From an uncultured Planctomycetia bacterium (lineage in GTDB: Bacteria > Planctomycetota > MHYJ01 > WSZJ01 > CAZYRM01), in NCBI GenBank assembly GCA_964649705.1, contig CAZYRM010000015.1, forward strand, positions 1,119 to 65,118: 64,000 nt of DNA, read 5' to 3'. The first letter of the stretch is position 1; every line of letters begins with the position of its first letter. The position numbers and the translations under genes were made by a program. Positions 3,107-39,156 of the stretch are shown one piece after another. The notes below the pieces were generated by a model that had not been told where the DNA came from, did no database searches, and saw only the letters and a list, made by a program, of their open reading frames with translations.

Positions 3107-3901
3107 CTACTTCGACCGCGAGCGCGTCAGGGCCTTCGCCCAGGCGGCGTCCTCGGGTGAGAGGGGAGGGACGGGCGGCTTGCTGTAGTCGAGCATCGCC
3201 CAGTAGACCCCGGACCTGTAGACGTTCTCCATGAGAGACTGCAAGTCCACGGCCAGATCGGGGTCCCCCTTCAGCAGGGGAACGGGGAAGCGCGGCAGGC
3301 GATCCCGGAGCTTGAGCGGATAGACGTCTGCGCGCGATCGCCGGCCGGCGCGGTGGATGGCCACCAGGTAGTCGTACGGGCGGTGGGGGCGAAGCGCCCT
3401 GGGCGGCACGGCCACGGTGTGCTCCCCGCCGCGAAGGAGGTCGATCTCGATCAGATGGACGTCCGAGGACAGCACCTCGCGCTGCCTCTGGACGTACTTC
3501 TCGTAGCCGTCCGATCCTGGTGACTCGTTCGTCGGGGAGAGGACCTCGATCACGGTCACCAACCGTCCCAGGGCGCCGCCGAGCCGGATCTCGACGTTCG
3601 CCTGTTCCAGCTCCAGTGGGAGCGCTTCCAGGCTCACCGCCGGGTCGATCGTCGCTCCGCCAGCCCTCTTCATCGGCCTTCGCGATTCACGATACACGAT
3701 GACGTCCGGCCCGATAGGTCTGTTCTCGGCGGCCTCGACGACAACTCGAAAGCTGTGCGTTGCCACGTAACGCGGCGCCGTTCTTGCCGAGATGTTCCAT
3801 GCGAGCAGGCTGATGAGGCCGTGATGCGCGCTCGGCCAGAAGACAGGATCCTCGAGCCAGGGGTCCATACCTGGAAACAGGTACCGCCTCTTTCTCGCCA
3901 T
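3107..3901 (-). CDS. DUF4058 family protein (PD-(D/E)xK/Uma2-like)
   Basis: FPGMDPWLE, IEVLSPTNE and HLIEIDLLRGG are typical of this family. Confidence 0.85.
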   Translation of the reverse strand: MARKRRYLFPGMDPWLEDPVFWPSAHHGLISLLAWNISARTAPRYVATHSFRVVVEAAENRPIGPDVIVYRESRRPMKRAGGATIDPAVSLEALPLELEQANVEIRLGGALGRLVTVIEVLSPTNESPGSDGYEKYVQRQREVLSSDVHLIEIDLLRGGEHTVAVPPRALRPHRPYDYLVAIHRAGRRSRADVYPLKLRDRLPRFPVPLLKGDPDLAVDLQSLMENVYRSGVYWAMLDYSKPPVPPLSPEDAAWAKALTRSRSK

Positions 3902-3945
3902 ACTACCGGATTCTACGCCCATGGCCGGACAGCCGCAAGTAGCCG

Positions 3946-5714: not shown

Positions 5715-6398
5715 TCACACCCCCAGCCGTCCGAGAAGGCCCAGGAACCGGATCGTGTCCCGGATCGGGCGGATCTTACTCTTCTCCGTGCCGTAGACGG
5801 TGGAGACCTCCGCCTCGCGGATGCGGAAGCCGCGGCGGGCCGCGCGGACGAGGATCTCGCTCTCCAGGTCGAACCCCTCCGTCGTCACGGAAACGTCGCG
5901 GAGCACCCGCGCGCGAAAGAGGCGAAAGCCGGACTGCGTGTCGCCGATCCGACACCCCGCAGCCAGCGAGAGGACGGCCGACATCGTCCGGTTCGTCCAA
6001 CGGCGCACGAACGGCATCTCGCGCGGGTCCAGCCGCCGCGTCCCGACGACCACGTCCGCTCCCGTCCGCTCGGCGCACGCGATCAGCCGCGGGACCTCCT
6101 CCGGGAGGTGCTGTCCATCCGCGTCGAGCGTCAGGACCGGGTCGGCGCCGTTCGCAAGCGCCCAGGCGAACCCCGTCCTGAGCGCCCCGCCCTTGCCGCG
6201 GTTCCGCTCGTGGACGATGACGCGGGCGCCGGCCCCGCGCGCCTCGGCCGCCGTGCCGTCCGGGGAGCCGTCGTCGACGACGAGGACCTCCGATACCACG
6301 GCGCGCAGCCGTCCGACGACCTCGCCGACGCGTCCCTCCTCGCGGAAGGCCGGAACGATGGCAACCGCGTGCAAGCCGGCCTTGCCAGCGCCGTTCAC
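5715..6398 (-). CDS. Glycosyltransferase family 2 (polyprenol-phosphate sugar synthase-like)
   Basis: VPAFRE, VVDDGSPDGT, NRGKGGA, DADGQH, DTQSGFR. Confidence 0.93.
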   Translation of the reverse strand: MNGAGKAGLHAVAIVPAFREEGRVGEVVGRLRAVVSEVLVVDDGSPDGTAAEARGAGARVIVHERNRGKGGALRTGFAWALANGADPVLTLDADGQHLPEEVPRLIACAERTGADVVVGTRRLDPREMPFVRRWTNRTMSAVLSLAAGCRIGDTQSGFRLFRARVLRDVSVTTEGFDLESEILVRAARRGFRIREAEVSTVYGTEKSKIRPIRDTIRFLGLLGRLGV

Positions 6399-7045
6399 AG
6401 CAGGGTCCCGGGTCGGCGCGGGTACCCCTTGTAGGAGAAGTTCAGGTTGAAGAGGGCGACGACGGCCTCAAGCACCGCTCCCGCCACGCCGCGCGCCCAG
6501 GGCGGCACGCCGGCCTCCTCCTGGGACGGAAGCTCCTGCGGACAATCCACGACGCCCCACTCGGGCCGCCCGGGGTAGACGAGCCGCCCGTTCGAAGGGC
6601 CGCCCACGACGACCCGCGCGTGGACCTCGGTCGCGGCGAACCCGGGGCCGATCCCGACGATCATCGGGGCGTCGAGCGGGTCGGGCCGCGTCTCGTGAGG
6701 GACGCCGGCCGCGTCGACGAGGACGATGGGCAGGAACCTCTCCTTCACGTCCGCCGCGGGGTCGGCGAAGACGGGCACCATCCCGTCTCCCCAGATGTTC
6801 ACGAACTCGAAGTAGTATTCGGCCTTCTTCGCGCGGAGGCCCTCCACGTCGATCTCGCCTTGGAGGAGGGCGCCCGCGAACGTGGCCCGGGGGAACGGCG
6901 TGCGCGGCGTCGGGAGCTCGGTCAGGGCGACGCGCGGGATCCCTGCGCCGACGAGGCGGCGCGCGATCGCGGTCCCGGCGCGGCCCGCGCCGCGGACCAG
7001 GATCGAGAGGTCGGAGAGGATCTTGATGTCGGTGGGAGATGCCAT
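6395..7045 (-). CDS. YqeB/EF2563-like protein, internally shortened
   Basis: ILVRGAG..GTAIARRL, TELPTP, FAGALLQGEIDVEGLRA, IGPGF and the C-terminal VAGAVLEAV resemble YqeB. Confidence 0.6.
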   Translation of the reverse strand: MASPTDIKILSDLSILVRGAGRAGTAIARRLVGAGIPRVALTELPTPRTPFPRATFAGALLQGEIDVEGLRAKKAEYYFEFVNIWGDGMVPVFADPAADVKERFLPIVLVDAAGVPHETRPDPLDAPMIVGIGPGFAATEVHARVVVGGPSNGRLVYPGRPEWGVVDCPQELPSQEEAGVPPWARGVAGAVLEAVVALFNLNFSYKGYPRRPGTLL

Positions 7046-7195: not shown

Positions 7196-10100
7196 TCAGC
7201 GTACAAGCTCCATCCGTGCCTCCTCGGCGGCGTCTCCTTCCTGGCAGAACCTCACCAGCTCCGGGTACTTCTCCGTCGCCATTACCTGCGGCCCGATCTC
7301 GAGCTCGTGCCTCACCCGCACCGCGTCTCCCTCCATCCGCCACGTGATCGCCAACCGCCCGATCTCCCCCTGCAGGAGCACGTCCTCGGGCAGCTTCCCG
7401 ACCCGCCATCCGTCGGGGATGCGGATGACCGCCTCGGTCCGCGAGGCCTCCCACGACGGGATCCTGAGCGGCACCGTCCGCTCGCGCTCCTGGCAGAAAT
7501 TGCTCCTCAGCTTCGACCGAGGCGCCGGCAAGGGGACCTCCATCCGCCCCCCGCGCATGCGCCCGAAGGAAGGCGTGCGGAAAGTCGCCTCGACCGAGAG
7601 GGGCGACCCCGCCTCTCCGAGGCCGGGCAGCTCCATCTCCTCGAGCTGGAAGCCCAGGAAGAAGTTCGCCAGGAGCGTCTGGAAGATCATCTTCCTCTGC
7701 GGCCCCTCGACGCCCAGGAGCCGGTCCTTGTACGCCGCCGCAGCCACGCCCCGAAGGTCCAGGCGGACCTTCCCGACCAGCGTCCCGTCCTCGGAAAGCT
7801 CCCCCTCGAGCGCGACCGTGTTCCCCGAGGCCGACGGCGGCGCCGACGGGATCGTCACGAACCGCGGCTGGCGCGGGTCCAGGATCAGCCCGTCTCCTCC
7901 CTGGGCCAGCTCGGAGACCTGGCCGGCCCCGAGGAGCCTCGCGTCGCCCGAGAGCCAGAGCGCACCGTCCGGAAGCGGCACGCGGAGGAGCGGAGAGACC
8001 CGACCCGCCGAGAAGACGTCGGACCGTGGGACGTCCCAGACCGCCTCCCCGACGAGGTCCTCGCGCGGCCTGACGGCCACCCAGTCGTACCGGACGCCCA
8101 TCGCGTCGAGGACCGCCGCCGTGAGCGTCAGGATCGACCCCGAGCGCGTGGAGAGGATCGACTGCGCGTCGCCAAACGACTCCGTGTCCTTCACCCAGCC
8201 CTGCGCGAACCGATAGGCGGCCTCGGCCGTCTGGCGCGGCCCGGCGGCCTTCTTCAAGAGCGGCTCCGCGACGCGGCGGATCTCCTCGGTCACGCGCGCC
8301 TGGCCGAGCAGCGACTCCCGCATCGTCTCCACGACCTCCGCCCACGTCCTGCGCTCCGCCACCATCACGTACGGCAGGAGGTCCGTGTCCGGCGGCGACT
8401 TCGACTGCCGCTCGAGCATCGGCAGCCCCTCCGCCTCCCAGACGACCGCTTTCCAGCCATTGGGCGCCTTCGCGACGCCGCGACGCACGACGGGGCAGCG
8501 GTCGAAGCCACGCTCGCGAACCACGAGCCCAAGCGACTCGGGCCACTCGATGGCGAACCGGACATAGGTCACGGGGCCGCTCCGCTCCGTGTCGTGGAAG
8601 AAGAGCGACAGCGACTGCCCCTCCGGCGCCGGGGGCACCTCGCGGCGGAACCGCGTCTCGATCACGGAGCCGGGAACGAGGCCCGGCATCGTCAGCGTGC
8701 CTCCCTGGCCGATCTGGCTCGGCGAAAGGACCTTCCCGTCGGGGCGGAGGTTCCGCGCTTCGAGGATCGCCCCTTCCAGGCCCACCGCGCCGCCCGCCTC
8801 GACCGCCTCCTGCGTGTTGAGGCGGATCGCCTGGTGCGTCCAGACCGTCGCCGACCCGTCCGCGCGGAAGCGGACCACGACCTGGCGGAAGAGGTGATCG
8901 ACGGGTGCGCCGATCGGCCGCGGGGCCGCGCGCATCGCCTCGACGGCGTCGAGCCGGTACGCCTCCGGCGGCTCCTCCGACTCGCCTCGCAGCTCCGCAA
9001 GGAGAGCGAGAGACGGGCCATCCGATGGGTCGATCGAGAGCGCCTTCTCGAGGAGCGCGATTCCCTCCTCGTCGCGGCCGGAGCGGAGGAACAACTCGCC
9101 CATCCGCCTCGGATACGACGCCTCCTCGGGGACCAGCTTCCAGGCCTCACCGTAGGCATCCAGCGCGTCCCTGGTCCTCCCGGCATCGGCGAGGGCCTCC
9201 GCGAGGGCCGCGTGCGCCCCCGGATCGGACAGGTCCTGCCCGACTTCGGCCCGGGCGAAGGCGATCGTCCCCTCCAGGTCCCCGGTGGCCTTCGCCAGCG
9301 CCGCGATCTGACGCCTCGCGGAGGTCGACTTCGCCGAGAGGGCCTCGAATCGCTCCTTCGCCTGGGGGTAGTTCCCGAGGACGACCGACTCCATCGCGAG
9401 CCCCTCCGCGGCCGTGAGCGCTCCGGCGGCGCGGCGCTCCAGCTCCTCGAGGGCGTGGCGGGCTTCGATCCCCCACCCCTCGTCCTGCAGGATCTGGGAG
9501 GAGAGCAGCGGCCCGGCGAAGTGCGTCGGGTTGATCTCGGAGGCGCGCCTCAGCGCATCGAGGGCCTTGTCCGCGTGATGGTCCCGCTTGTAATACAGCG
9601 CAAGGTCCTCGAGCGCGGGGACGAACGAGGGGTCGATCGCGAGCGCCTTGTCGTACCAATCCTTCGCGCGGTTCCGCCGCTCGCTCTCGGGGACGTGCTC
9701 CGCCGTGTCGTAGAGCTCTCCGAGGAGGCAGGCGACGTGGGCGGACTTCGGGAGCAGCTCGACCGACCGCACGCCGGCGGCGAGGGCGCGATCGGGGACC
9801 TCTTCCTCGGAGAGGAGGAAGGCGCGCATGCTCGCGGCCCAGCCGCTCTCCCGCTCGACGGCCTCGTACGCGGCGAGCGCGCCCCAGGTGGACCACCGCG
9901 AGTCGCGGGCGGGCGCGCCGCAGGGGTGGAGCCCGGTTCCTTCCTCTTCGGCGAGGGCCAGCGGCTCGCCGCGGGCGTCCAGGAGACGGACGCGGAAGCC
10001 CTCCTCGTTGAGGAGCGACTTCACGACGACGCGGTTCCAGCCCGCGGAGAGGCGGACGGGGGCGACGAGCGTGCGGGGCAGCCAGGCGCGGAAGCGGTCG

Positions 10101-10726
10101 ACGTCCGGGAGGAGGCCCTCGTTCCACCAGACGCGGAGGGGGCCGCCGCACTCGACCCAGAGGAAGGCATCCGCGTCCGCCTCGGCGCGGACCTGGCAGA
10201 GCGCGTAGGCCGCGCCCTGGAGGGGGCGGAGGTAGCGGGAGGGGACCACGGGGACGAGGCCGGGGTACGGCCGCCACGAGCAGTCCGCGCCGCGTTCCGG
10301 CGCGAAGGAGGTCTCGAACGATGCGGCGTCGGTGCGGCCGTAGGGTCCCGAGACGCGCCAGTGGGAGAGGTCGCCGTCCCGGGCGCGGACCGTCAGCGCC
10401 GCCGCGTGGTCGCCCGTCTCGTCGAGCAGGCGCGCGACGTTGCGACGCAGGTGGAAGGCGTTGGGGCCGGAGAGGGCGCCATCGAGCTCGCGCAGGCGCG
10501 GCAGGTACGCCGTGGGGTCGGGGACGAAGACCTCGACGTTCTTCCAGGCGCGGAGGACGACCTCGACCTGGGGTGCCTCGGGGTTCGCGGCGGCGAGCGC
10601 CAGCCACTCGTCGAAGAGGCCGACGTAGTCGCCGCGCCGCCACGCCTCGGACTCCAGGACCTTGCGGTCGAGGTCGTCCTCCGCGCAGGCGGCTAGGGCC
10701 AGGACCAGGAGGAGGAGGATCGGCAT
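7196..10726 (-). CDS. Secreted/lipoprotein TPR + DUF3857 + degenerate transglutaminase-like protein
   Basis: LALAAC N-terminus; WRVSGPY jelly-roll module; TPRs; RQVVVRFRADGS...PGSVIE (DUF3857-like); no catalytic Cys visible. Confidence 0.75.
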   Translation of the reverse strand: MPILLLLVLALAACAEDDLDRKVLESEAWRRGDYVGLFDEWLALAAANPEAPQVEVVLRAWKNVEVFVPDPTAYLPRLRELDGALSGPNAFHLRRNVARLLDETGDHAAALTVRARDGDLSHWRVSGPYGRTDAASFETSFAPERGADCSWRPYPGLVPVVPSRYLRPLQGAAYALCQVRAEADADAFLWVECGGPLRVWWNEGLLPDVDRFRAWLPRTLVAPVRLSAGWNRVVVKSLLNEEGFRVRLLDARGEPLALAEEEGTGLHPCGAPARDSRWSTWGALAAYEAVERESGWAASMRAFLLSEEEVPDRALAAGVRSVELLPKSAHVACLLGELYDTAEHVPESERRNRAKDWYDKALAIDPSFVPALEDLALYYKRDHHADKALDALRRASEINPTHFAGPLLSSQILQDEGWGIEARHALEELERRAAGALTAAEGLAMESVVLGNYPQAKERFEALSAKSTSARRQIAALAKATGDLEGTIAFARAEVGQDLSDPGAHAALAEALADAGRTRDALDAYGEAWKLVPEEASYPRRMGELFLRSGRDEEGIALLEKALSIDPSDGPSLALLAELRGESEEPPEAYRLDAVEAMRAAPRPIGAPVDHLFRQVVVRFRADGSATVWTHQAIRLNTQEAVEAGGAVGLEGAILEARNLRPDGKVLSPSQIGQGGTLTMPGLVPGSVIETRFRREVPPAPEGQSLSLFFHDTERSGPVTYVRFAIEWPESLGLVVRERGFDRCPVVRRGVAKAPNGWKAVVWEAEGLPMLERQSKSPPDTDLLPYVMVAERRTWAEVVETMRESLLGQARVTEEIRRVAEPLLKKAAGPRQTAEAAYRFAQGWVKDTESFGDAQSILSTRSGSILTLTAAVLDAMGVRYDWVAVRPREDLVGEAVWDVPRSDVFSAGRVSPLLRVPLPDGALWLSGDARLLGAGQVSELAQGGDGLILDPRQPRFVTIPSAPPSASGNTVALEGELSEDGTLVGKVRLDLRGVAAAAYKDRLLGVEGPQRKMIFQTLLANFFLGFQLEEMELPGLGEAGSPLSVEATFRTPSFGRMRGGRMEVPLPAPRSKLRSNFCQERERTVPLRIPSWEASRTEAVIRIPDGWRVGKLPEDVLLQGEIGRLAITWRMEGDAVRVRHELEIGPQVMATEKYPELVRFCQEGDAAEEARMELVR

Positions 10727-10730
10727 CGAG

Positions 10731-12650
10731 CTACGGGAACCTCAACTGCGACAGGAACTCCTCGAACGCCTTGGCGTCGTCCACGAACGACGGCGTGTCC
10801 TTCGCCGAGAAAAGGGCGAGGAACGTGCGACCGCCCTCCTGGAGGAGCGCCAGCCGGTAGCGCATCGTGACGCCCTGGGTCCTACCCGTGATCTCGCTTC
10901 GGTACGTCCGCCGCCCGCCGTCCTCCGCGAGGTCCGCCGAGACGACCTTCAGGTCCGTGAGCACGCCCGTCAGCGCCCCCTGCAGCTCCTGCGCGCTCTC
11001 CATGGAGAGCGGCCCGGCGCCGAGGAGGGGACGGATCTGCATCACGGCCCGCTCCTTCTGGAATACGGCCGCGTCCGCTTCGGCGAGGAGCTTGTGGTCC
11101 CAGCCCTCGGGCCGCGGATACGAGACGCCCCAGCCGAAGTGCTCCACGCGGTCCGCGGCGACCTGGACGAGGTCGTCCTTCTCCGAGAGGACGCGCTCCC
11201 CGCCCGCTCCGCGCACCGAGGCGACGGACACCTTCGCGCGGCCGAAGAAACGCATCATGCGGGCCGTCGTCTCGCCCGAGAGGGCCCCCTCGTCCGCGAA
11301 GCCGAAGTGGAGGTAGGCTGGCGGCGTGCCGACCGCGTCGAGCGTGGCGTCCACGGGCAGCCACTTCCCGACCCACACCTCCGTCCACTGGTGGTACCCG
11401 GCCTCCTTGCCGATCCACATGAGCCCCGAGGCCGACCGCGCCGGGACGCCCGACGCGCGGCAGAGCGCCGCGACGAGCACCGCGTGCTCGGTGCAGTCGC
11501 CCGAGCCCTCCACGAGCGTCTCCTTCGCCGTCTTCGCCCCGACGATGCTCGACTCCTTCTTGAGCGTGCGATAGACCCAGTGCACGATCTTCGCGGCCGC
11601 CGCAAGCGCGTCCTTCTCCTCGCCGACGATCTCCTTCGCCTTCGCCTGGATCTCCGTGTCGTCCGAGCTGCAGCGGGGCGTCGACCTGAGGAACTCCGCC
11701 ACGGAGGCCTCCGCGACGGGGCGCTGGACGGTCGGCCCCGACGGCGCGGGCTGCGCGAGGAGCGTCACCGAGATCACCTCCCCGGAGGCGGAGACCCGAT
11801 GGTACGGCTCCTCCGGGATGAGGTCCTTCGTGTCGCCCCCCTCCAGGCGGATGGAGAGCGTGACCTCCGTGAAGCGGCCCGGGAAGAGGATCACCGGCTT
11901 CACCGGCAGCATGTTCTCGAGTTCCTTGATGGCGGCGAATCCCTTGGCGTCCGCCTCCGTCGTCAGCTTCATCGCGAGCGGCCCGGCCTTCATCTGCACC
12001 ACGAACCCGTCGTCGCGGATCCAGAGCGACATGGGGAAGTTCTTGTAGAGGGAGTTCTCGATCCGCAGCCTCATCGCGTCGTGGTCCGCGCCGGCAAGGC
12101 TGAGCGTCTCCCTCTCCTCGGCGAGGATCGTCACGTCCGCGATCGCCAACTCGCGCGTCTCGATCGAGTGGTCCTGCACGGAATTCCCCGCATCGAGGCG
12201 GAGCGAGGCGTAGTACTGCCCGCTCTGGTCGTGGATCGTCCTCCCCTCGAGGTCCAGCTCCTTCTCCTCGACCTTGTCGTTCACTTTCTTCCGGATGCGG
12301 ACCTTGCCGTCGTGGACGACGACCTCCTCCTCCGAGATCTGCTCCCCCTCCTCGCGGCGGGACTTCGAGAACAGGGGAACGAAGTCGATCGACGCGTAGG
12401 CCTCCTCCTCGGTCCGCGTCACGGACACGACGCCGCGCGCCCTGATCCGGAGCTCCTGCTTGGACTTCGTCCACCACGCCGGCTGACCCTCGTACTCCGT
12501 CCGCTCGATCGCCGTGTGCGACCAGCCGACCTTCTGGCCGTTGATGTAGTACTCGTGCCACAGGTCGCGATGGTCCGCCCCCTCGGCGGAGAGCCTCGTG
12601 ACGAGGGCCAGGATCGCGATCGGCAGCCAGCATCCCGTTCGGCGGGTCAT
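10731..12650 (-). CDS. Secreted transglutaminase-like domain protein
   Basis: Signal peptide; Cys-His-Asp triad in GDCTEHA...ASGVPAR, YHQW and VDAT. Confidence 0.88.
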   Translation of the reverse strand: MTRRTGCWLPIAILALVTRLSAEGADHRDLWHEYYINGQKVGWSHTAIERTEYEGQPAWWTKSKQELRIRARGVVSVTRTEEEAYASIDFVPLFSKSRREEGEQISEEEVVVHDGKVRIRKKVNDKVEEKELDLEGRTIHDQSGQYYASLRLDAGNSVQDHSIETRELAIADVTILAEERETLSLAGADHDAMRLRIENSLYKNFPMSLWIRDDGFVVQMKAGPLAMKLTTEADAKGFAAIKELENMLPVKPVILFPGRFTEVTLSIRLEGGDTKDLIPEEPYHRVSASGEVISVTLLAQPAPSGPTVQRPVAEASVAEFLRSTPRCSSDDTEIQAKAKEIVGEEKDALAAAAKIVHWVYRTLKKESSIVGAKTAKETLVEGSGDCTEHAVLVAALCRASGVPARSASGLMWIGKEAGYHQWTEVWVGKWLPVDATLDAVGTPPAYLHFGFADEGALSGETTARMMRFFGRAKVSVASVRGAGGERVLSEKDDLVQVAADRVEHFGWGVSYPRPEGWDHKLLAEADAAVFQKERAVMQIRPLLGAGPLSMESAQELQGALTGVLTDLKVVSADLAEDGGRRTYRSEITGRTQGVTMRYRLALLQEGGRTFLALFSAKDTPSFVDDAKAFEEFLSQLRFP

Positions 12651-12651
12651 C

Positions 12652-15600
12652 TCACTTCTCCATGCGCTCGAGGACCACCTCCTGGTCCTCCCAACGGTCG
12701 AGGTCCTGGCACAGGCCCCTGTAGGCGGCGTAGTCGGCCGGCGAGACGCGCGGCGCCTTCACCGAGAAGCTGCGGCGGAGGACGATCTCCTCCCCGTCGA
12801 CCTCGTACGAGGCCTTCGCGCCCGCGACCGGGGTCTCGATCTCGAGAGGAGAGGGGAGCGACGCCGCCCTCAGCCCCTCGGGGAGCGCGAAGCGGACCTC
12901 CAGCTCCGACGACTTCGGCGCGGAGAGGAGGAGGTCGTGCGTCCGCGTGATGAGAGGGCAGTCTTCGGAGAGCGCAAGGGGGAACGGGGATGCGGGGAAC
13001 GTGGCCCCCTCGCCCCTCTTCCGAGCGTACGAGGGGACCTCGACGCGGTACCGGTAGCTCACGGGCACGTCGACGTCCTCGAGGTCGGAGAACTCTTCGT
13101 CGGCGACGCGGCACGCCCCGAAACGGCGGCCCCACTGCTGCTCGATCGCCTCGGTCCGACGGTTCTCGGCGGAGTAGATCGCGCGGTCCAGGGCCCCCTC
13201 GAGGCCGACCGGCTCGACCGTGACCACGGCCTGCGCGGAGCCGTCCGCGGCGAGCGCCACGCGCGCCCGCACGACGCGGCGGTTGTCCTCGGGGCGCCCC
13301 CAGGGGACCTCGGCGATCCGCCCGCCGTCCTCCTCGACGACGAGGACCGTCGCCCCGCGGTCCATCTCGGGGAGCGTGTCCATCGGGTGCATCGTCGCCG
13401 TCCCGTCGAGCCACAGCTCGCCGCCGCCGGGGAGCGTGACGACCGCGATGCAGTGGTTGAAGTGCTCCATCATCGGGCTCGCGAGGTCGTCCCGGCCGTG
13501 CGGCGCGTCGGCGTGGATGATCACGGGCCTCGCCTTGATCCCGAGCTCGCCGAGCATCACGCAGATCAACGTGGCCTTGTCCTTGCAGTCGCCGAAGCCC
13601 CTGCGGAGGATCTGGCTCGCGCGGTACGGCTGGAACCCGTGCACGCCGAACTCCCACGCCTGGTAGGGGACCTTCTGCGAGACGAAGTTGTAGACGGCCT
13701 GGACCCGCGCGACCGGGTCGTCGATCCCCCTGGTCAGCTCCCGGACCTTCGAGCGGACGTCCTCGTCGACGTCCCACTGCCCCTTGACCATGCTCCAGTA
13801 CCAGGCGCCGAACTCCTTCCACCCCGCGAAGCTCGCCACCTCGGCCGTGGGGACGACTTCGGACAGGTCGGGCATCCCGGGTTCCGCCTGGACCCGGGCC
13901 GCGTTGCGGACCTCCCACACGTAGGCCTTCTCGTCGGGCGTCCTCCCCTCGCCGATCGTCGGCTCCGGGCTGCCGTTCCGCGCGTGGAGGTGCAGCTTCC
14001 TTGCCGAGGGCGCGAGGAGGACCATGCGCGAGCGGACGAGCGGGTACTGCGCGGCGAAGAAGAAGCGGATCCCGAAGTAGTCTCCGAAGAACCCCTGGCG
14101 CAGCTCCTCCGCGCGATACTCCAGGTCGACGATGTCGCCCACGGCGAGCGGCGGGAAGTCGATGCTGGAGGCCCCCTCGGACGGCACGCGCGCCTCGTCG
14201 ACGCGCCCGTCGGGGTGGACGACGCGCGCCGTGAGCACCTTGAGCGTCTCCTCCCCAGGGTTGGCGGGGAGGCCCATCACGTCGAACTCGCGGATCGACT
14301 TCTCGTCGAGAATCTCCACGATCCAGTGCGTGTACTGGCCCTTGGTGCCGTCGGGGTGGAGGCGGACGACGAGCTCGTCGAGGAGATACCTCGCGTGCGC
14401 CGCGGGGTCCTTGGGCGCCGCCTTCCCGTCCGCGAGGGCCTCCTCGAACGGCACACGGTAGCGGGCCTCGTACGACTCCTGCTCGGCGGAGAGGTGCTCG
14501 AGGAAGCGGCGGAGCCTCGCGTCGTTCGGGTCGGCGTCGAGGGCGCGCTTCCAGCCCGCGAGGGCCTCCTCGCGGCGGCCCAGCCGGTCCAGGAGCCTCG
14601 CCCGAGTCTCGTGCAGGGACGAGGCCTCGGGGGCGATCCCGAGCGCGAGGTCGCACTCCGCGATCGCCTCCTCGTACTTCCCCGCGGCCTCGAGCGCGCC
14701 GACCTTCACGCTCCGCGCGTCGACGGAGAGGGGGACGGCGTCGACGGACTGCTGGCAGGCACGGGCCAGCCCGTCGAGGTCCCCCTGGGCGCGGAGGCAG
14801 CGCATCCAGGCGTTCCGCAGGTCGTCGTCCATCGGATCGATGGCGAGCGCCCGCTCGACCACGGCGCGGGCGTCGGCGACGCGCCCCTCGCCGAGGAGGG
14901 CCTCCGTCTGCCTCTCAAGCGCCGCGGTCTGGTCGGGGAAGTCCTGGGCCAGGTCGTCCACGCGGCGGCGCGCAAGCGGCGCGAGTCCGCGTGCGCCGAG
15001 GAGGTCGATCTCGAGGACGCGGGCCACCAGGTTCCGCGGGTGCCTTGCGACGACCTCGCGGACGAGGTCGGTGGACTTCCGCCCCCGGGCGAGCGTCTTG
15101 GCCTCGATCCGCGCCAGTTCCAGCGTCGCGGGGTCGTACTCCGGGACGTCGGCGAGGAGCGCGACGAGCCGCGTGCGGACTTCGTTCTCCTCCTGCTCGG
15201 CCGCCATCGAGGCGCTCTCACGGAAGGAGAGGGCGTGGGCGAAGCGGTAGTGGGCGTTCTCGTCGTCGAGCTCGGCGGCCGCGCGGTACTGCTCGCGGTC
15301 GTCGCGGCGCTCGCGAGGCTGGAGCCGCCGGGCGGCGATCAGGGAGCCGAGGTGGTACCGCTCGCGCGCGGTCGCCTTGCCGGTCGATGCGCGGGCGCGG
15401 AGCCTTGCGAGGTCCTCGGCCGGCGGGGCGCCCTGCGGCGAGATGGACGGTTCCTGAGCCCCCTCCGGCGGAGACGTGCGCACCTCGGCGGGGTGGAGCG
15501 CGCGTCCCTCGCGGTCGGTGAGGCGGAGGCGGAAGCCCCAGCTCCCCGAGAGGTCTCCGACCTTCACGACGAGGCGATGCCATCCTTCACCGATCGGCAA

Positions 15601-16353
15601 TGGGACGACGTCCTGGTCAAGCGCGGCGTCCCGCCGCACGTCCCGCTCGGCCGCGAGCTTCCCGTCGAGCCACATACGGAACCCCTCGTCGGAGGCGATC
15701 CGCGCGACCACGCCGTCCGATTTCTCCAGGCGGACCCACATCGTCGCGTACGCGCAGGCCTGGTCGTTCGGGCGGAAGAGGGCGTCGAAATCCACGGTCC
15801 CGAGGCACGGCGGCACTGGGATCGGACGCCAGCCGACGTCGCGGACCTTCCCGCGGAACGTCGCGTCGGCGTCGAACTCCCCCTCTGGGCCGTCCACGCG
15901 CGAGAGCCCCTGGCCCTCCTGGTTGTCGAACGGGCCGCAGACGAGCCAGTCGGTGAGGAACCCGAGCTCCTCAGCGCGGGCCCGGGCGTCCGCGATCCGG
16001 CCCAATCGCAGGAGGATGGTCGCGAGGTTCCAGTCGCGGCGCGCGTCGACGAGCGGCCAGTCCTCGAGCGCGAGGGCGGCCAGGACCTCGGCGGCCTCGG
16101 TGAGGCGCCCCCCCTGGAGCGCGGCGTCGGTGTAGCGGTCGAGGGCGTAGCTGGCCCACTCGGCCGACTCGGCGTCATCGTCGTCGACGGAGGCCTCGAG
16201 CGCCTCCCTCCACGCCGTCACGGCGGCGGCGAGGTCCCCTTCGGCCTCGGCGGCCAGGGCGCGGTCTTCTGCCTCCTCGGCGTCGTCGACGTCGGCGCGC
16301 GCCATCGCGCAGGAGGCCGCAAGGAGGGCCGCGAGGAGCAGTCGCCTGGTCAT
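12652..16353 (-). CDS. Secreted TPR + DUF3857 + transglutaminase-like protein
   Basis: MTRRLLLAALLAASC signal; WLVCGPFDN module; TPRs; GDCKDKATL, FNHCI, WLDGT. Confidence 0.88.
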   Translation of the reverse strand: MTRRLLLAALLAASCAMARADVDDAEEAEDRALAAEAEGDLAAAVTAWREALEASVDDDDAESAEWASYALDRYTDAALQGGRLTEAAEVLAALALEDWPLVDARRDWNLATILLRLGRIADARARAEELGFLTDWLVCGPFDNQEGQGLSRVDGPEGEFDADATFRGKVRDVGWRPIPVPPCLGTVDFDALFRPNDQACAYATMWVRLEKSDGVVARIASDEGFRMWLDGKLAAERDVRRDAALDQDVVPLPIGEGWHRLVVKVGDLSGSWGFRLRLTDREGRALHPAEVRTSPPEGAQEPSISPQGAPPAEDLARLRARASTGKATARERYHLGSLIAARRLQPRERRDDREQYRAAAELDDENAHYRFAHALSFRESASMAAEQEENEVRTRLVALLADVPEYDPATLELARIEAKTLARGRKSTDLVREVVARHPRNLVARVLEIDLLGARGLAPLARRRVDDLAQDFPDQTAALERQTEALLGEGRVADARAVVERALAIDPMDDDLRNAWMRCLRAQGDLDGLARACQQSVDAVPLSVDARSVKVGALEAAGKYEEAIAECDLALGIAPEASSLHETRARLLDRLGRREEALAGWKRALDADPNDARLRRFLEHLSAEQESYEARYRVPFEEALADGKAAPKDPAAHARYLLDELVVRLHPDGTKGQYTHWIVEILDEKSIREFDVMGLPANPGEETLKVLTARVVHPDGRVDEARVPSEGASSIDFPPLAVGDIVDLEYRAEELRQGFFGDYFGIRFFFAAQYPLVRSRMVLLAPSARKLHLHARNGSPEPTIGEGRTPDEKAYVWEVRNAARVQAEPGMPDLSEVVPTAEVASFAGWKEFGAWYWSMVKGQWDVDEDVRSKVRELTRGIDDPVARVQAVYNFVSQKVPYQAWEFGVHGFQPYRASQILRRGFGDCKDKATLICVMLGELGIKARPVIIHADAPHGRDDLASPMMEHFNHCIAVVTLPGGGELWLDGTATMHPMDTLPEMDRGATVLVVEEDGGRIAEVPWGRPEDNRRVVRARVALAADGSAQAVVTVEPVGLEGALDRAIYSAENRRTEAIEQQWGRRFGACRVADEEFSDLEDVDVPVSYRYRVEVPSYARKRGEGATFPASPFPLALSEDCPLITRTHDLLLSAPKSSELEVRFALPEGLRAASLPSPLEIETPVAGAKASYEVDGEEIVLRRSFSVKAPRVSPADYAAYRGLCQDLDRWEDQEVVLERMEK

Positions 16354-16363
16354 CGTGCCCCCG

Positions 16364-17980
16364 CTACCGGATGAACCTGGCGCCGCCCCAGTCCGCGCGG
16401 TCGAGCGTCTCCCCGTCGAAGATGTCCCCCTCGACGCCGCAGCGTACGACGAGGACGATCGTCTCGACACCCTCCAGGGAGACGGAGACGTCCTTCGCGT
16501 CCTCGCCGAACCGCACGAGACCGCTGTCGTAGAGGACCTTCGCCAGGTCCGGGATGCGCGTGACCGCGTCCCCGACGGCCGCCTCGAGGCAGCGGCGGTT
16601 CAGCCGGTCGACCTCGCGAGGCGTCCTCGCGGCCGCGTCCCTGGCGAGGATCGCCTTCGCGTCCTCGGCGAGATCGTCGGCGGGGAAGGCCTTCTCCTGC
16701 CAGAGGTCGGCCTGCGCGAGGGCGGCGTTCACGGCGTTGCGGACGGCGGCCTTCCGCGCGTCGGTCGCCTCTTCGCCCTCGGCGAGCTCCTGGACGGCCT
16801 TCAGCTCGCCCTCGCCCGTGATGAGCCCGGAGAACCGCTTCGACTTGAGGAGGGCGGCGCAGAGTTCCTTCCAGTCCTTCACGTGGGCGGTGTACAGGCG
16901 CAGCTCGGGGTCGACCTGGTCGATGGTCCCCTGAAACACCTGGAAGACGACCGATCCGCCGCTGCCGTCCGCGCCAGCGGACTCCTTGTCGAGGCCGACG
17001 GAGGCGCAGAACCTCTGATATCCTCCCGCGGGCTTGAACTCGAGGGCGCTGTAGGAGTGCACGCCGAGCCCCTTGCGGAATTCCCGCGTCTTGATCGTGA
17101 GCGGACCGCCCTTGTCGACGGCCCCGTCCCGGCGGAACGGGAACGGGCTGTTCTCCGGCCGCTCGGGGTCGTAGATGAACGGCCGCTCCCGCACGGCGGA
17201 GGGGTTCTCGTCGGAGAGGTACGCTACGCGTCCGTGGACGAAGTAGATGGCGCGCACCGCGGGCACGGGGACGGGGACCTCCTTCACGATGACGTGGTCG
17301 AGCTTGAGCGTCTGCCCGGTCATGGAGGTCAGCGTCCCCGTCAGCCGAGTCCCGCCGGAGCAGACGACGGTCGCGAGGAGCGTGTCCGGGGTCTTCACCG
17401 GCAGCGAGCTCCCCACGTACCAGCCCGCGATCTGCTTCCACTCGTACGTGACCTCGACGTCCTTGCGGCCCATGAAGCGGATGCCCTCCGGCGTGATCGC
17501 ATCGGCCGCCTCGGACGGGAAGCCGACGTTGGTGTCCTGGTTGATCAGGTAGATGCGGTCGGTGCCCTCGGCGGAGGCGGCGGCGTCCGACGGGACCTTG
17601 TCCTTGTTGTTGTCCGTCAGGACGAGGAGGCGGGAGACGTTCGTGAGCGGAAGCTCCATCCGTCCCATCTCGCCGGCCGCGATGACGATGTGCTCGGTAT
17701 CCCCGCTGGCAACCTCCCCGCGGATGACGTCGCCGTTCATGAGGACGACCTCGACCTGGGGGTTCCCGGCGGGGGCCCCGTCGTTGGCGGGGAAGGTGAT
17801 CTCGACGACGGTGTCGCAGGGGATCAGCTTCGACTCCCCGTCGGCGAGCGTGACGACGAGGTTGTCCCCGTCGACGGCGATGGCGGTCCCTGTCGTGACC
17901 TCCTCGTTCATGTCGAGGACGCGCACGTCGAGGGCGAGGACGGGGAGGGCGAAGGCCAGGCAGAGGGCGGCGCTGCGCAT
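16364..17980 (-). CDS. Secreted NPCBM/NEW2-domain protein
   Basis: Signal peptide; KGLGVHS...F.ASVGLD...GSVVFQV...LYDSG...ADWGGARF. Confidence 0.8.
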   Translation of the reverse strand: MRSAALCLAFALPVLALDVRVLDMNEEVTTGTAIAVDGDNLVVTLADGESKLIPCDTVVEITFPANDGAPAGNPQVEVVLMNGDVIRGEVASGDTEHIVIAAGEMGRMELPLTNVSRLLVLTDNNKDKVPSDAAASAEGTDRIYLINQDTNVGFPSEAADAITPEGIRFMGRKDVEVTYEWKQIAGWYVGSSLPVKTPDTLLATVVCSGGTRLTGTLTSMTGQTLKLDHVIVKEVPVPVPAVRAIYFVHGRVAYLSDENPSAVRERPFIYDPERPENSPFPFRRDGAVDKGGPLTIKTREFRKGLGVHSYSALEFKPAGGYQRFCASVGLDKESAGADGSGGSVVFQVFQGTIDQVDPELRLYTAHVKDWKELCAALLKSKRFSGLITGEGELKAVQELAEGEEATDARKAAVRNAVNAALAQADLWQEKAFPADDLAEDAKAILARDAAARTPREVDRLNRRCLEAAVGDAVTRIPDLAKVLYDSGLVRFGEDAKDVSVSLEGVETIVLVVRCGVEGDIFDGETLDRADWGGARFIR

Positions 17981-18041
17981 GAGCGGTCTCCATCGGGTCC
18001 TGAAGACCGCGATGATACTCCCCGGCACCCCGGCGAGGCAA

Positions 18042-20012
18042 TTACCGCTCGCGCGCCACGCCCCCGGCGTCGCCGACCCAGAGCGAGCCGTTGGCCGCGA
18101 TGCGCGGGTGCACCGTGATCGCCGCGACGGTCTCGCGGTCGCACGCCGCCTGGCAGAGCCTGACGACGAGGTCGACGAGCCCCGCGTGCTGCTTCCCGTC
18201 GGGGGCGAGGCCCGCCTCGGCGAGGAGGTGCTCCGCCTCGGTCTTTCCGAGCGGACAGACGCGGCTCACGCGCCCCGACGGACCCGAGACGACCATGACC
18301 GGCCCGAACACCGGGTCGCGGTGCACGGCAATCGGGACCGACCGCCCTTCCGGCGCCGCGGGGCCGACGTAGACCGGGCACTTGTGGAACCGCTTCCTGA
18401 GGTGCAGGAACCCGCGGTCCAGCTCCTTGCGCGTCTTCACCCCCTCCACCGCCAGCTCCTTCACGCCGTCCTTGCCGACCTTGCGGGCCGGCAGGGCGCG
18501 GAGGGTCACGGGGAACCCGATCTTCCTGAGGGCAGGGTTCGCCGTCTTCAGCGACTCGAGCACGACCCCCTCGGGGGCCGGGACGCCGATCGCGCGGAGG
18601 ATGTCGAGGACCTCGGGCTCCTTCATGTCGCGCTCGCGGATCGGCGCGTCCCCGGCCGGCGCGGCCACGGCCGCCTTCGGCCTGGAGAGGATCCCCTTCC
18701 GCTTCTGGACCTCGAGCAGCTTGCGCCACCGGTGCAGCCCCGCGTACGCGCGCGCGGCGCGCTCGGGGGTCGGGAAGACGGGGATCCCGCCGTCCTGCAG
18801 CACCCCGGCGGCGTTGGGCGCGCCCGTGACCATGGCGACGACACACCGCCCCGTGCGGCGCCTCCCCTCGATGGCCGCCTCGGCCAGCTCCGGCAGGTCG
18901 ACCCCCGCGTCGAGGAGGAAGAGCCCGCCAGCCTTCGTGTCCGCATAGGCGGCGTCGAGGACCGGGCCGTACTTCGACGGCGCGAGCCCCGTCGGCAGCG
19001 CCAGCGGCGCGCCGGGCTCCTCGCCCACAGCCGCCTTGATCGCCCTCGCCGTCTTCCCGTCCCACTCGGACACGGAGAGGCCGACGCGCACGCAAGCAGC
19101 CTTCCCCGCCGACGCGAGGCCGCCGGGAGCGGCGACGATGCCCACCGCCTCCGAGGACGGAAGGTTCCGCTGCGACGTGCAGAGCGCGATGCCGATGTCG
19201 AACAGCTCCTGGACCTCGGACGCGGGATAGAGGCCGCACTGACGGAACGCCGTCGCGTAGAGGTCGGGCGTGTCCGACTCCCCGACGTGGAGGGCCGCGA
19301 CCGGCTTCTGGAGGGCGACCTCGCTCGCGACCGAAAGGAAGCGCTGCCCGTCGCGGAGCCCGTCGAGGACGAGGAGGATCGCCTCGGTGCGGGAGTCGCG
19401 CCCGAGGAACTCCAGCGCGTCGGCGGCGTCGACGTCGAGCTGCTCGCCGTACGCGACGGCGCGGGCGAACCCGCGGCCGCGGGCCTCGAGCTCGCCGGCG
19501 AGGAGGAGGAAATACGACGGGTCGGGGGCGGCGATGCTGATCCCGCCGCGCTCGCGGGGGAGGCCGCCGAGGGCGCAGAGCCCGACGCCCATCTGCGGGT
19601 CGGCCACGCCGCCCGCGCGGGGGCCGAGGAGGCGCATCTTGGCAGTCCGCGCGATGGCGAGGACCTCCCTGCGGGCCTTCTGCCCGGCGGACGAGGAGGC
19701 GGGCCCGCCGCAGGCGTCAGGGAGGATCACGGCCTTCGCCTTCGCCCCGGCCGCCTCGCGCACGGCGGCGACGACGTCGGCCGCCGGGACGGCCACGACG
19801 ACGACGTCGATCTCCCGCTTCGCGTCCTTGAGCTGCGGGAGGCAGCGCCGGCCGCAGACCTCGCCGTCGGTCGGGTGCACGGGGATGATCTCCCCGCCGT
19901 ACCCGCTGTCGGCAAGCGCGCGCACGTAGGCGTATGCCCGCCCTGCGGGCTCGAAGGACGTCCCGAGGACCGCAACCGTCCTCGGTGCGAACAGGGGGTC
20001 GAGAGTGCTCAA
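18042..20012 (-). CDS. Acetate/acyl-CoA ligase (ADP-forming)-like protein, probably inactive
   Basis: LFAPRTVAVLG, IIPVHP, LLGPRAGG, GEQLDVD, EAILLVLDG, RDPVFGPV; the phospho-His segment is missing. Confidence 0.75.
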   Translation of the reverse strand: MSTLDPLFAPRTVAVLGTSFEPAGRAYAYVRALADSGYGGEIIPVHPTDGEVCGRRCLPQLKDAKREIDVVVVAVPAADVVAAVREAAGAKAKAVILPDACGGPASSSAGQKARREVLAIARTAKMRLLGPRAGGVADPQMGVGLCALGGLPRERGGISIAAPDPSYFLLLAGELEARGRGFARAVAYGEQLDVDAADALEFLGRDSRTEAILLVLDGLRDGQRFLSVASEVALQKPVAALHVGESDTPDLYATAFRQCGLYPASEVQELFDIGIALCTSQRNLPSSEAVGIVAAPGGLASAGKAACVRVGLSVSEWDGKTARAIKAAVGEEPGAPLALPTGLAPSKYGPVLDAAYADTKAGGLFLLDAGVDLPELAEAAIEGRRRTGRCVVAMVTGAPNAAGVLQDGGIPVFPTPERAARAYAGLHRWRKLLEVQKRKGILSRPKAAVAAPAGDAPIRERDMKEPEVLDILRAIGVPAPEGVVLESLKTANPALRKIGFPVTLRALPARKVGKDGVKELAVEGVKTRKELDRGFLHLRKRFHKCPVYVGPAAPEGRSVPIAVHRDPVFGPVMVVSGPSGRVSRVCPLGKTEAEHLLAEAGLAPDGKQHAGLVDLVVRLCQAACDRETVAAITVHPRIAANGSLWVGDAGGVARER

Positions 20013-20024
20013 CGCCGACTCCTC

Positions 20025-21191
20025 CTACACGACCGCGCCACCCGTGATGGCCCCGCCCTTGTCATCCCCCGCCGCCCGCGTCGCGGGCAGCGGCTCGTAG
20101 ACCTTCGCTCGATCGAGGATCATGCCCAGGACCACCAGGACCACGATCCCGGCCCCGGTCACCGGCAGGTACTGGGCCCTCGGCACCGAGGGGCGGGAGA
20201 TGTAGATCGCCACGCAGCCCGCCACCGCGGAGAAGAGGTACAGGAACAGGACCGCGCCGCGCTTCCCGAGCCCCAGCGCCGCCAGGCGGTGCGTGACGTG
20301 GTCCCGACCGCAGTACGTGATCGCCTCGACGACCCCCTTCACGACCCCGCTCTTCGCCCTCAGGATCGTCGAGAGCGTGATGTCGTAGAGGGGGACGACG
20401 AGGACGACGCACGGGATGATGATGCTCTTCACCCGGTCGGCCTGGGACCAGGCGCCGAGGATCGTGATCGCCGCGAGGAGGAAGCCGGTGAGGAAGGCGC
20501 CGTTGTTCCCGAGGTAGGTGCGCGCGGGCCCGACGGCGTTGTAGCGCAGGAACCCGAGCGTCGCCCCCGCGTGGGCGATCGACGCGAAGCTCACCCACCG
20601 CTGCACCTGCCGCCAGTAGGAGTTCTCGGGCCCCGTGGACAGGGCGGCGTAGTTCTCCCAGGCGATGACGAACGTGGTGAGCGCCGCGAGGACCGTCACC
20701 CCGCCCGCCGCCCCGTCCATGTTGTCGAGCGAGTTCATCGCGCTCGTCACGCCAACGATCCAGAACAGGGTGAGCACGGTGTTCGCCCACGCGAACGGCT
20801 GCTCGAACAGCGTCGCCGCGACGCCGAACCGCCCCAGGAGCCACGTCGCCAGGAACAGGACGAGGAGCTTCGCCACGGCCCAGATCGGCCTCATGTCGTC
20901 GATGACCCCGAGGACCAGGACGAACGCAGCGCCGAAGACGATCCCGAAGAGCGGGCGGTTCCCCTCGAACGATTCGAACCGCAGGATGGAGAAGATCGCC
21001 ACGGAGAACGCGAGGAAGATCCCCACGCCGCCAAGGAAGGCGACGGGGTGCTCGTGCGTCTTGTACGTGTGCGGGCGGTCCACGGCGCCCGTCCGGAGCG
21101 CGATCCAGATGAGGGCCGGGACGAGCAGGTCCGCGAGGAACCACGCGAACACGAACATGCCGACATGGGGTTGGTTCAAATTCTCGATCAT
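20025..21191 (-). CDS. MraY/WecA family polyprenyl-phosphate sugar-1-phosphate transferase
   Basis: LGGVGIF, LGVIDD, NSLDNMDGAAGG, YLGNNGA, RDHVTHRL; multi-TM. Start may be 21158. Confidence 0.9.
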   Translation of the reverse strand: MIENLNQPHVGMFVFAWFLADLLVPALIWIALRTGAVDRPHTYKTHEHPVAFLGGVGIFLAFSVAIFSILRFESFEGNRPLFGIVFGAAFVLVLGVIDDMRPIWAVAKLLVLFLATWLLGRFGVAATLFEQPFAWANTVLTLFWIVGVTSAMNSLDNMDGAAGGVTVLAALTTFVIAWENYAALSTGPENSYWRQVQRWVSFASIAHAGATLGFLRYNAVGPARTYLGNNGAFLTGFLLAAITILGAWSQADRVKSIIIPCVVLVVPLYDITLSTILRAKSGVVKGVVEAITYCGRDHVTHRLAALGLGKRGAVLFLYLFSAVAGCVAIYISRPSVPRAQYLPVTGAGIVVLVVLGMILDRAKVYEPLPATRAAGDDKGGAITGGAVV

Positions 21192-21230
21192 GGCCGAAAC
21201 ACGAGGGCCCAGTTCATCCGAGATCGACGT

Positions 21231-21366
21231 AACAATTCTCAATTCTCAATGAGCAATTCTCAACGAAGGCTCAGGTTCGAAAGGCCCAAGGCCCCGAACT
21301 CCGACACTTGAGACATTCGAATTTGAGCCTTCGTTGAAAATTGCTCATTGAGAATTGAGAATTGTT
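21231..21366. repeat. 43-bp-arm palindrome built of CAATNNN heptamers
   Basis: 21231-21273 pairs with 21324-21366 at 42/43 positions. Confidence 0.96.
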
Positions 21367-21378
21367 CCATGGCATCCA

Positions 21379-22137
21379 TCAGTCTCCCCTCTCCTCCTCC
21401 TCCATGTCTTCCGCCGGCGGCCCGTCCACCCATCCCCACTCGCCCTCGCCGCGCAGCACCGCGAGGCTCCGCGGCCCCGCGTTCATCAGCAGGTCGACCG
21501 CGGAGAGGTACGGCACGAACGGCCCCGCGAAGGCCTGCGGGTAGACCGGGTGGCGGAACTCCTGGAACACGAGCTTCACCCCCGCCTCCGCCACGCGCGG
21601 CAGGTCGAGGTAGTCCTTCCCGTGCACCCCCGAGAGGTACGCGTCCGCCCCCGTCTTCCGGCAGAGGTCGATCACCAGCTCCGTCCCCTTCCCACGGGCC
21701 CCCAATTCGCTCGACAGGTGGACCGGCTTCCGCAAGCCGAACATCTCCATCATCCCGCGTATCAGGTGCACCGACAGGTCCGCGAGCCGCTCCCAGCGCC
21801 TCGCGTACGTCTCACGGAAGAACCCGGCGTACTCCGCGTAGAAGGGGGCCGATCGGTAGTTCCACTCGATCGACTTCCCGTGCTTCTTCTCCCACCCCCT
21901 CGCGGGGTCGATCTCCGCCTCGCGGATCGTCTGGTGGAACCGCCCGTGCGTCTTGATCGGGACCGAGAGCCACGCCCATCCCTCCGGGGTACGGACGCGG
22001 TTCCGGTGCATCCATCCGAACGGCCCCCGCTTCACGAACTGGACGTCGTCGACGACGACGAAGGCGTCCGCCCGGTCGACCTTGTCGAAGAAGCCCAGGT
22101 ACGGCAGGTAGTTCGGCTGGTGCCCGGCCACCATCAT
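21379..22137 (-). CDS. wbqC: WbqC family protein
   Basis: MVAGHQPNYLPYLGFFDK...DDVQF...NR...YLSG...Y.Q...F.P.LS.VDLL; ATGA overlap with the upstream cyclase. Confidence 0.92.
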   Translation of the reverse strand: MMVAGHQPNYLPYLGFFDKVDRADAFVVVDDVQFVKRGPFGWMHRNRVRTPEGWAWLSVPIKTHGRFHQTIREAEIDPARGWEKKHGKSIEWNYRSAPFYAEYAGFFRETYARRWERLADLSVHLIRGMMEMFGLRKPVHLSSELGARGKGTELVIDLCRKTGADAYLSGVHGKDYLDLPRVAEAGVKLVFQEFRHPVYPQAFAGPFVPYLSAVDLLMNAGPRSLAVLRGEGEWGWVDGPPAEDMEEEERGD

Positions 22138-39024: not shown

Positions 39025-39047
39025 CACTGCCAGGCAAGGCCCTGACC

Positions 39048-39150
39048 GGCCGAGCCCCGACAGGCCGAGCCCCGAAGGGGCGCCCCAAGTCAGCCAGGGG
39101 CGGAGCCCCTGGAACCACGTCAGGAGACGGAATGGAGCCCTGAAGGGGCG
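39048..39150. repeat. REP-like cluster of GC-rich hairpins
   Basis: GAGCCC(C/T)GAAGGGGCG at 39067 and 39135 flank the hairpin CCAGGGGC-GGA-GCCCCTGG at 39094-39112. Confidence 0.75.
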
Positions 39151-39156
39151 ACTCAT

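Follow-up and report, generated by a model that had tools for sequence, protein, structure and literature searches.

What is the role of a bacterial gene coding for an apparently dead enzyme that sits directly behind a gene for its live relative? The question is raised by a stretch of 64,000 nucleotides (the window in what follows) from an uncultured Planctomycetia bacterium (GenBank assembly GCA_964649705.1, contig CAZYRM010000015.1), in which three consecutive genes on the minus strand, here called A (12652-16353), B (10731-12650) and C (7196-10726), code for secreted-type proteins of the transglutaminase fold. A preliminary description of the locus considered A and B as active and C as an inactive paralog that scaffolds both of them in a membrane-tethered complex. 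Our results indicate that an inactive paralog does stand beside an active one, and that the ancient conserved unit is the A+C pair and not the A-B-C triad, B being a local addition.

Translation confirmed the three tandem open reading frames (ORFs) and the motifs quoted for them in the preliminary description. The gaps of 1 to 4 nt reported there were also found, with the A/B junction reading TGA-g-ATG (1 nt) and the B/C junction TAG-ctcg-ATG (4 nt). The G+C content of the region is ca. 70%, and third-codon-position G+C marks out an unbroken run of genes on the minus strand.

Protein A (1233 aa, with an intact active site) has a signal peptide, a helical N-terminus, a beta-sandwich, a TPR solenoid, a DUF3857 domain (residues 667–819), a transglutaminase core (869–981) and a DUF3858 domain. 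In Pfam it matched TPR families, DUF3857 (65.8 bits, cut-off 24.6) and Transglut_core (PF01841, clan CA; 44.0 bits, cut-off 23), with DUF3858 at 18.8 bits, under the cut-off of 27 although the region aligns with that of C. The start codon of A is fixed by the stop of the preceding gene, coding for an NPCBM-domain protein, that stands 10 nt upstream. The catalytic triad is found at 13405-13587 (minus strand), with Cys923 at 13585-13587, His967 at 13453-13455 and Asp983 at 13405-13407. These residues are kept by 86 out of 87 A-type sequences of other loci; the orthologues of A are 69–87% identical to it.

Protein C (1176 aa) repeats this layout, as had been claimed: a signal peptide ending in LAAC (Cys14), a beta-sandwich (residues ~120–250), TPR (~282–580), DUF3857 (609–770), a degenerate core (~795–960) and DUF3858 (970–1175). 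The alignment between A and C runs end to end, beginning near residue 100 and reaching the C-terminus, with 24% identity (E 2e-45), so they are full-length paralogs. Besides TPR, C matched DUF3857 (27.1 bits, cut-off 24.6) and just met the cut-off of DUF3858 (27.9 bits against 27), and no match to Transglut_core appeared in Pfam even at E <= 0.1. The N-terminal beta-sandwich, located at 15454-15993 in A and 9947-10384 in C, carries a W-x-V-x-GPF motif common to A-type and C-type proteins. Even at E <= 10 it had no match in Pfam, and at the sequence level it is an undescribed domain. Sequence searches of the PDB with A and C returned matches to the TPR part only.

The dead site of C covers positions 7949-8140 (minus strand). 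The preliminary description was right in considering C inactive, but the motif SGSILT does not simply replace the cysteine. A deletion of three residues takes out Asp-Cys-Lys (RSG---SILTL versus GFGDCKDKATL in A), bordered by Gly863 and Ser864 (8135-8140), and the other two catalytic residues are lost too, with Ser911 (7994-7996) in the His column and Ser926 (7949-7951) in the Asp column. Could C still be an enzyme, by means of a displaced nucleophile or some other chemistry? A minority of C-types keep the Asp, and in a few the His column holds a His. Between residues 744 and 1077, however, the translation of C is devoid of cysteine, and a displaced Cys nucleophile in the core is thereby ruled out. 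None of the three catalytic columns holds a residue conserved across C-types, and the shell around them is degenerate. We consider this alternative very improbable. C is a true pseudoenzyme paralog of A, a member of the fold and not an enzyme of the triad type.

The loss of the triad might also suggest a tandem duplicate on its way to becoming a pseudogene. The ORF of C is, however, intact over 1176 codons, and its ratio of nonsynonymous to synonymous substitutions (dN/dS) against the closest relative, the locus L005, was 0.261, similar to those of A (0.215) and B (0.272), with amino-acid identities of 85% for C, 87% for A and 85% for B. The AlphaFold2 model of C, obtained from an alignment of 50 sequences, was confident (pLDDT 89.4, pTM 0.82) and shows helices, the beta-sandwich, the TPR solenoid and the three C-terminal domains. 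Its best PDB match with Foldseek was 3KD4 (E 8e-20, TM-score 0.70 on the target, 613 columns), covering all three C-terminal domains, and the next ones fell in the TPR part, e.g., the superhelix of OGT. The confident fold and the purifying selection indicate that C is maintained and not decaying. Furthermore, the C-type clade is kept in several phyla with hundreds of representatives, and all these data refute the pseudogene explanation, to which we give practically no credence.

Two cysteines of C located in DUF3858, C1078 (7493-7495) and C1161 (7244-7246), align with two cysteines of A. They are invariant among the close orthologues of C and missing in distant C-types. A disulfide specific to the lineage may join them, and would agree with a location outside the cytoplasm.

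To see how far the arrangement extends we scanned species-representative genomes with an A-type alignment. At least 598 stretches matched, and the best 80 loci were fetched and their long ORFs classed by an A-type hidden Markov model, a C-type model and a test for the Cys motif. The top matches (32–36% identity) were all from Planctomycetota. In 60 of the 69 loci with enough downstream sequence, a C-type gene without the Cys came directly after a Cys-bearing A-type gene, both lying on one strand. Planctomycetota, Myxococcota, Acidobacteriota, Verrucomicrobiota, Omnitrophota and others are represented among these loci. Where the crude gene caller used found the start of C, the distance from the stop of A was mostly -4, -1 or 2–12 nt. 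Stop and start overlap by 4 nt, with no B in between, in the complete genome of Anaeromyxobacter oryzae, in an Anaeromyxobacter metagenome-assembled genome (MAG) and in two other MAGs. A census of 108 flanking ORFs, looking for a third partner or a functional hint, found no family in more than five, indicating that the pair is self-contained. A scan of the genome collection with three close orthologues of C found no relatives, so that the lineage of the window lacks a close representative there.

The C-types were all devoid of the Cys, nearly always by the same deletion of three residues, and the triad is lost in at least 64 C-type sequences. A neighbour-joining tree built on the C-terminal modules placed 85 of the 86 A-types in one pure clade, and the mean identity between an A and its adjacent C was only 20%. 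The distances among A-types and among C-types are strongly correlated over 63 loci (r = 0.905). A and C stem from one old duplication and have co-diverged since then. The constraints have moved in the process. Mean identity was 23% among C-types versus 32% among A-types, and 17 positions around the A-type site, with an invariance of 91% or more in A-types, reach at most 47% in C-types. The strongly conserved residues of C-types are instead found in DUF3857: D614 (92%), H631 (95%), F710 (97%) and P785 (98%). We also searched a library of 1.84 billion representative proteins with residues 590–1176 of C. There were 2485 matches at E <= 1e-3, 934 at E <= 1e-10 (a figure not divided into types) and 121 at E <= 1e-30; the Cys motif was checked in the best 149 only, and GDC was missing in all 149.

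The C-types of three loci (L028, L046 and L086, from Omnitrophota and unclassified MAGs, at ~13450-17590 of their sequences) keep the full length at the site, which reads AGGRYQKIRL or GGKYQKLRL, with an Arg or Lys at the Cys position. They may be an intermediate, or may have been inactivated by a path of their own.

Regarding the location in the cell, signal-like N-termini were found on A, B and C of the window and on 111 of 120 C-types in a broad sample. The LAAC of C is indeed lipobox-like, as had been pointed out, but it does not distinguish C, since A has a similar LLAASC (Cys15), and in P0002 and P0003, orthologues of C, the Cys is missing at this position. Nor does membrane tethering hold as a defining feature, with lipobox-like N-termini in only 23 of the 120 C-types, a frequency close to that of A-types (5 of 31). 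We also considered, and rejected, that the pseudoenzyme might serve as the lipoprotein anchor as a rule. In a first sample 13 of 18 C-types had a lipobox versus 5 of 31 A-types (Fisher p = 1.5e-4), but this enrichment disappeared in the broad sample; the first one was dominated by one clade. Secretion is general to the family and lipid anchoring is not, although C of the window is possibly lipid-anchored.

Protein B (639 aa, secreted-type) is built differently, from a DUF3108-type beta-barrel (residues 35–214), a transglutaminase core (336–435) and a C-terminal PsbP/DcrB-like domain (~495–639), and its kinship with A is restricted to the catalytic core. Pfam recognized DUF3108 (PF11306, 31.9 bits, cut-off 26) and Transglut_core (69.7 bits, cut-off 23), and gave nothing beyond noise at E <= 10 for the C-terminal domain. 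The triad lies at 11349-11495 (minus strand), with Cys386 at 11493-11495, His420 at 11391-11393 and Asp434 at 11349-11351, and is invariant in an alignment of 23 members of the B family, so that the Cys-His-Asp attributed to A and B in the preliminary description is borne out for both. The AlphaFold2 model (pLDDT 85) has an all-beta barrel at the N-terminus, followed by the core and, at the C-terminus, by an alpha/beta domain. By Foldseek, the barrel matched the DUF1849 barrel 6NTR, the core 3ISR, and the C-terminal domain proteins of the PsbP/DcrB/LpqN type (TM-scores of 0.65–0.71 on the targets). Orthologues of B were found only in the four or five close relatives of the window. The wider family consists of stand-alone genes of 450–600 aa in unrelated contexts that lack the C-terminal domain of ~150 aa, which is specific to the lineage of the window. 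Among the fetched loci, B-type genes were confined to the window, L005 and L006, and all 80 distant loci were free of them. B is a lineage-specific insertion between A and C, drawn from a family of stand-alone genes.

These data bear on the proposal of a single membrane-tethered complex of A, B and C, with C as the scaffold of the two active proteins. The three genes lie 1–4 nt apart and were together in every close relative seen, the longest contigs given for the A and B orthologues agree in length within each of the pairs P0015/P0062 and P0016/P0063, the order of the genes is kept in L005 and L006, the extra PsbP-like domain of the B orthologues, missing in the stand-alone relatives, could be a docking module, and C of the window has its LAAC lipobox. 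But the distant loci have A and C without B, the stand-alone relatives of B occur in unrelated contexts, and the lipobox is missing in P0002 and P0003 and rare in the family. We find such a complex quite unlikely; a single scaffold for two active subunits would be at best a local elaboration. As an idea, scaffolding by C is reasonable for the A-C pair, B and the lipid anchor being local features.

On balance we think it probable, if only just, that A and C form an extracytoplasmic two-subunit enzyme, with A as the catalytic subunit and C as the retained non-catalytic partner. Its ancient core would be a translationally coupled module of two genes, of the transglutaminase/papain-like (clan CA) fold, whose products would be synthesized in equal amounts and would come together in an extracytoplasmic hetero-oligomer. 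A would carry out a thiol-dependent acyl transfer on a protein or peptide substrate, be it hydrolysis of peptide or isopeptide bonds, deamidation or transamidation, reactions among which the sequence cannot tell. C, that would bring its own TPR solenoid and DUF3857 surface, would act in substrate recognition, regulation or positioning, lipid-anchored in some lineages and possibly in that of the window. In this last lineage B, as a second active transglutaminase-core protein inserted between the two, would probably act on the same target or pathway. The TPR solenoid of OGT grips extended polypeptides, and the resemblance of the A and C solenoids to it would suggest a protein or peptide substrate. 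We infer the physical complex from the tight coupling of the genes and their co-divergence, and the chemistry and the substrate are likewise putative.

Several observations weigh against this two-subunit enzyme. Adjacency and co-divergence are equally expected of co-regulated proteins that never touch each other, B joins the pair in one narrow lineage only, and we found no published function for any member of the DUF3857 family. Besides, nine loci with at least 1.5 kb of downstream sequence gave no C-type call (L022, L024, L040, L041, L054, L068, L031, L069 and L018), so that A apparently can work alone. One of them, L018, is cut short and bears a truncated Cys-less ORF. Six of the nine (the first six) belong to Myxococcaceae or close relatives and lack a C-type in the 10 kb after the A-type gene. 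Among them are Pyxidicoccus, the Myxococcaceae MAGs L041 and L054, the chromosome of Myxococcaceae GXIMD 01537, the Myxococcota MAG L040 and a record named 'Comamonas sp. KCTC 72670' that groups with the others. Anaeromyxobacter oryzae has a second A-type gene, P0049 (1392 aa), outside the fetched A-C locus.

It is thus to be considered that A and C are co-expressed without forming a complex, C being a stand-alone binding protein, a structural protein of the envelope or a decoy or competitor that buffers the access of A to its substrate. The shift of conservation in C-types to DUF3857, off the old active site, the faster evolution of C at depth shown by the mean identities given above, and the lineages that have A without C are all in favor. 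On the other hand, the strict A-then-C order, the overlap of stop and start codons from phylum to phylum and the very high co-divergence are typical of obligate partners. We hold this explanation as possible, if on the unlikely side. A toxin-immunity pair was dropped as a candidate, both partners being secreted paralogs of ~1200 aa with no recurrent genes of secretion or conflict systems nearby.

All the following genes of the neighbourhood in the window are on the minus strand. Upstream of A are found the gene of the NPCBM-domain protein (16364-18028; secreted, 554 aa, NPCBM at 81.6 bits in Pfam), a CoA-ligase/ATP-grasp protein (18042-20012), a GT4 glycosyltransferase (20025-21242) and, flanking the cluster, a PAS-GGDEF diguanylate cyclase (22134-23081). 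Downstream of C are a 216-aa protein without Pfam family (6395-7045), a GT2 glycosyltransferase (5715-6398) and a DUF4058 protein (3107-3922, 214.9 bits). The NPCBM/A junction reads TAG, 10 nt and ATG, and this short distance between stop and start makes it probable that both genes are on the same transcript. The NPCBM gene is directly upstream of A also in L006, and in L005 it is separated from A by radical-SAM, hypothetical and PIN-domain genes; the diguanylate cyclase is upstream of the cluster in L005 too. The 216-aa gene and the GT2 follow C in L001 (that begins at C and has the same downstream genes as the window), L005 and L006, a linkage seen only in the lineage of the window, and may be a separate conserved unit. 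The 216-aa protein has a faint ThiF-like N-terminus (E 0.008), and against Pfam at E <= 10 it gave only noise. One could speculate, from the NPCBM protein upstream and the glycosyltransferases flanking the locus on either side, that the target in this lineage lies in an envelope rich in glycans.

Going further, the pair could be an unrecognised protein-modifying machine working outside the cytoplasm across phyla (Planctomycetota, Myxococcota, Acidobacteriota and allies), with the dead paralog as obligate substrate-presenting or gating subunit of a TPR-guided enzyme that processes or cross-links envelope or matrix proteins, and to which the lineage of the window would have added B and a glycan-binding NPCBM protein. 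We consider this whole picture unlikely.

A scan for promoters and terminators found nothing to fix the ends of the operon. DNA of the locus is present in groundwater metagenomes, and among the sequencing runs with the locus we found only such DNA and no RNA. No tRNA genes were found in the 64 kb, and the only Rfam match above the gathering score was an Acido-Lenti-1 small RNA motif (RF01687) at 39068-39112 on the minus strand (42.7 bits, cut-off 37), at the 5' end of a stop-to-stop ORF (37000-39156, minus).

Proteins of the transglutaminase fold abound in bacteria, and the substrate is known for almost none of them. One large sub-family is shown here to be built on a conserved couple, one live and one dead enzyme, a bacterial extracytoplasmic addition to the growing list of pseudoenzymes retained beside active paralogs. 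It also corrects the annotation of the C-types, now labelled merely as 'DUF3857' or 'TPR' proteins. The pair is present in a cultured organism, Anaeromyxobacter oryzae (AP025591.1, at ~3.24 Mb), which provides a handle for experiments: A has a single clear catalytic residue to mutate, and loss of the partner should copy or modify the phenotype.

How does the pair compare with known systems? Our literature searches on DUF3857/DUF3858, on 3KD4/BDI_1141, on transglutaminase-like pseudoenzymes and on the transglutaminase-like proteins of Myxococcus found no functional study of the family, nor a description of an active/inactive pair among DUF3857/DUF3858 proteins, and the mentions of 3KD4/BDI_1141 were incidental. 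This structure, from BDI_1141 of Parabacteroides distasonis and deposited as 'putative protease', is the structural type of the Pfam families DUF3857, Transglut_core and DUF3858, and its three-domain module corresponds to the C-terminal 570–600 residues of A (by Pfam) and C (by Foldseek). However, it is a single protein of 505 residues, with neither the N-terminal beta-sandwich nor the TPR solenoid, and no pseudoenzyme has been reported as its partner. The closest solved relative of the core of B is 3ISR, a putative cysteine protease (CHU) of Cytophaga hutchinsonii without assigned activity (E 2.3e-8 by sequence, 9e-10 by fold). It is a minimal core protein; the Cys-His-Asp triads of both align, and B differs by the added DUF3108 beta-barrel and PsbP-like domain.

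As for proteins with a known activity, the periplasmic transglutaminase-like domain of TgpA (PA2873) from Pseudomonas aeruginosa has transglutaminase activity in vitro (PMC3507681), indicating that this fold is able to cross-link outside the bacterial cytoplasm. TgpA can be likened to A through the core fold; unlike A, it is described as a membrane protein with no inactive paralog as partner and no DUF3857/DUF3858 or TPR reported. LapG, a protease of the periplasm with a Cys-His-Asp site, trims an adhesin of the cell surface and is as such a plausible analogue of what A might do. The LapG-type transglutaminase-like cysteine proteinases (PDB 4FGQ) have been placed in the same structural superfamily (PMC4866520). 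They differ in being small and single-domain and in belonging to another Pfam family, and none of our searches recovered LapG. For the relationship between A and C, a parallel is offered by the alpha and beta subunits of the mitochondrial processing peptidase (M16). That enzyme was duplicated, and of the two copies one is catalytic and the dead one is kept for substrate binding. The analogy is one of logic only, the M16 enzyme being a zinc metallopeptidase of unrelated fold and chemistry, and a putative A-C heterodimer would be its counterpart. The domains in Pfam and one structure were thus already known; the conserved organisation of an enzyme with its pseudoenzyme partner is previously undescribed.

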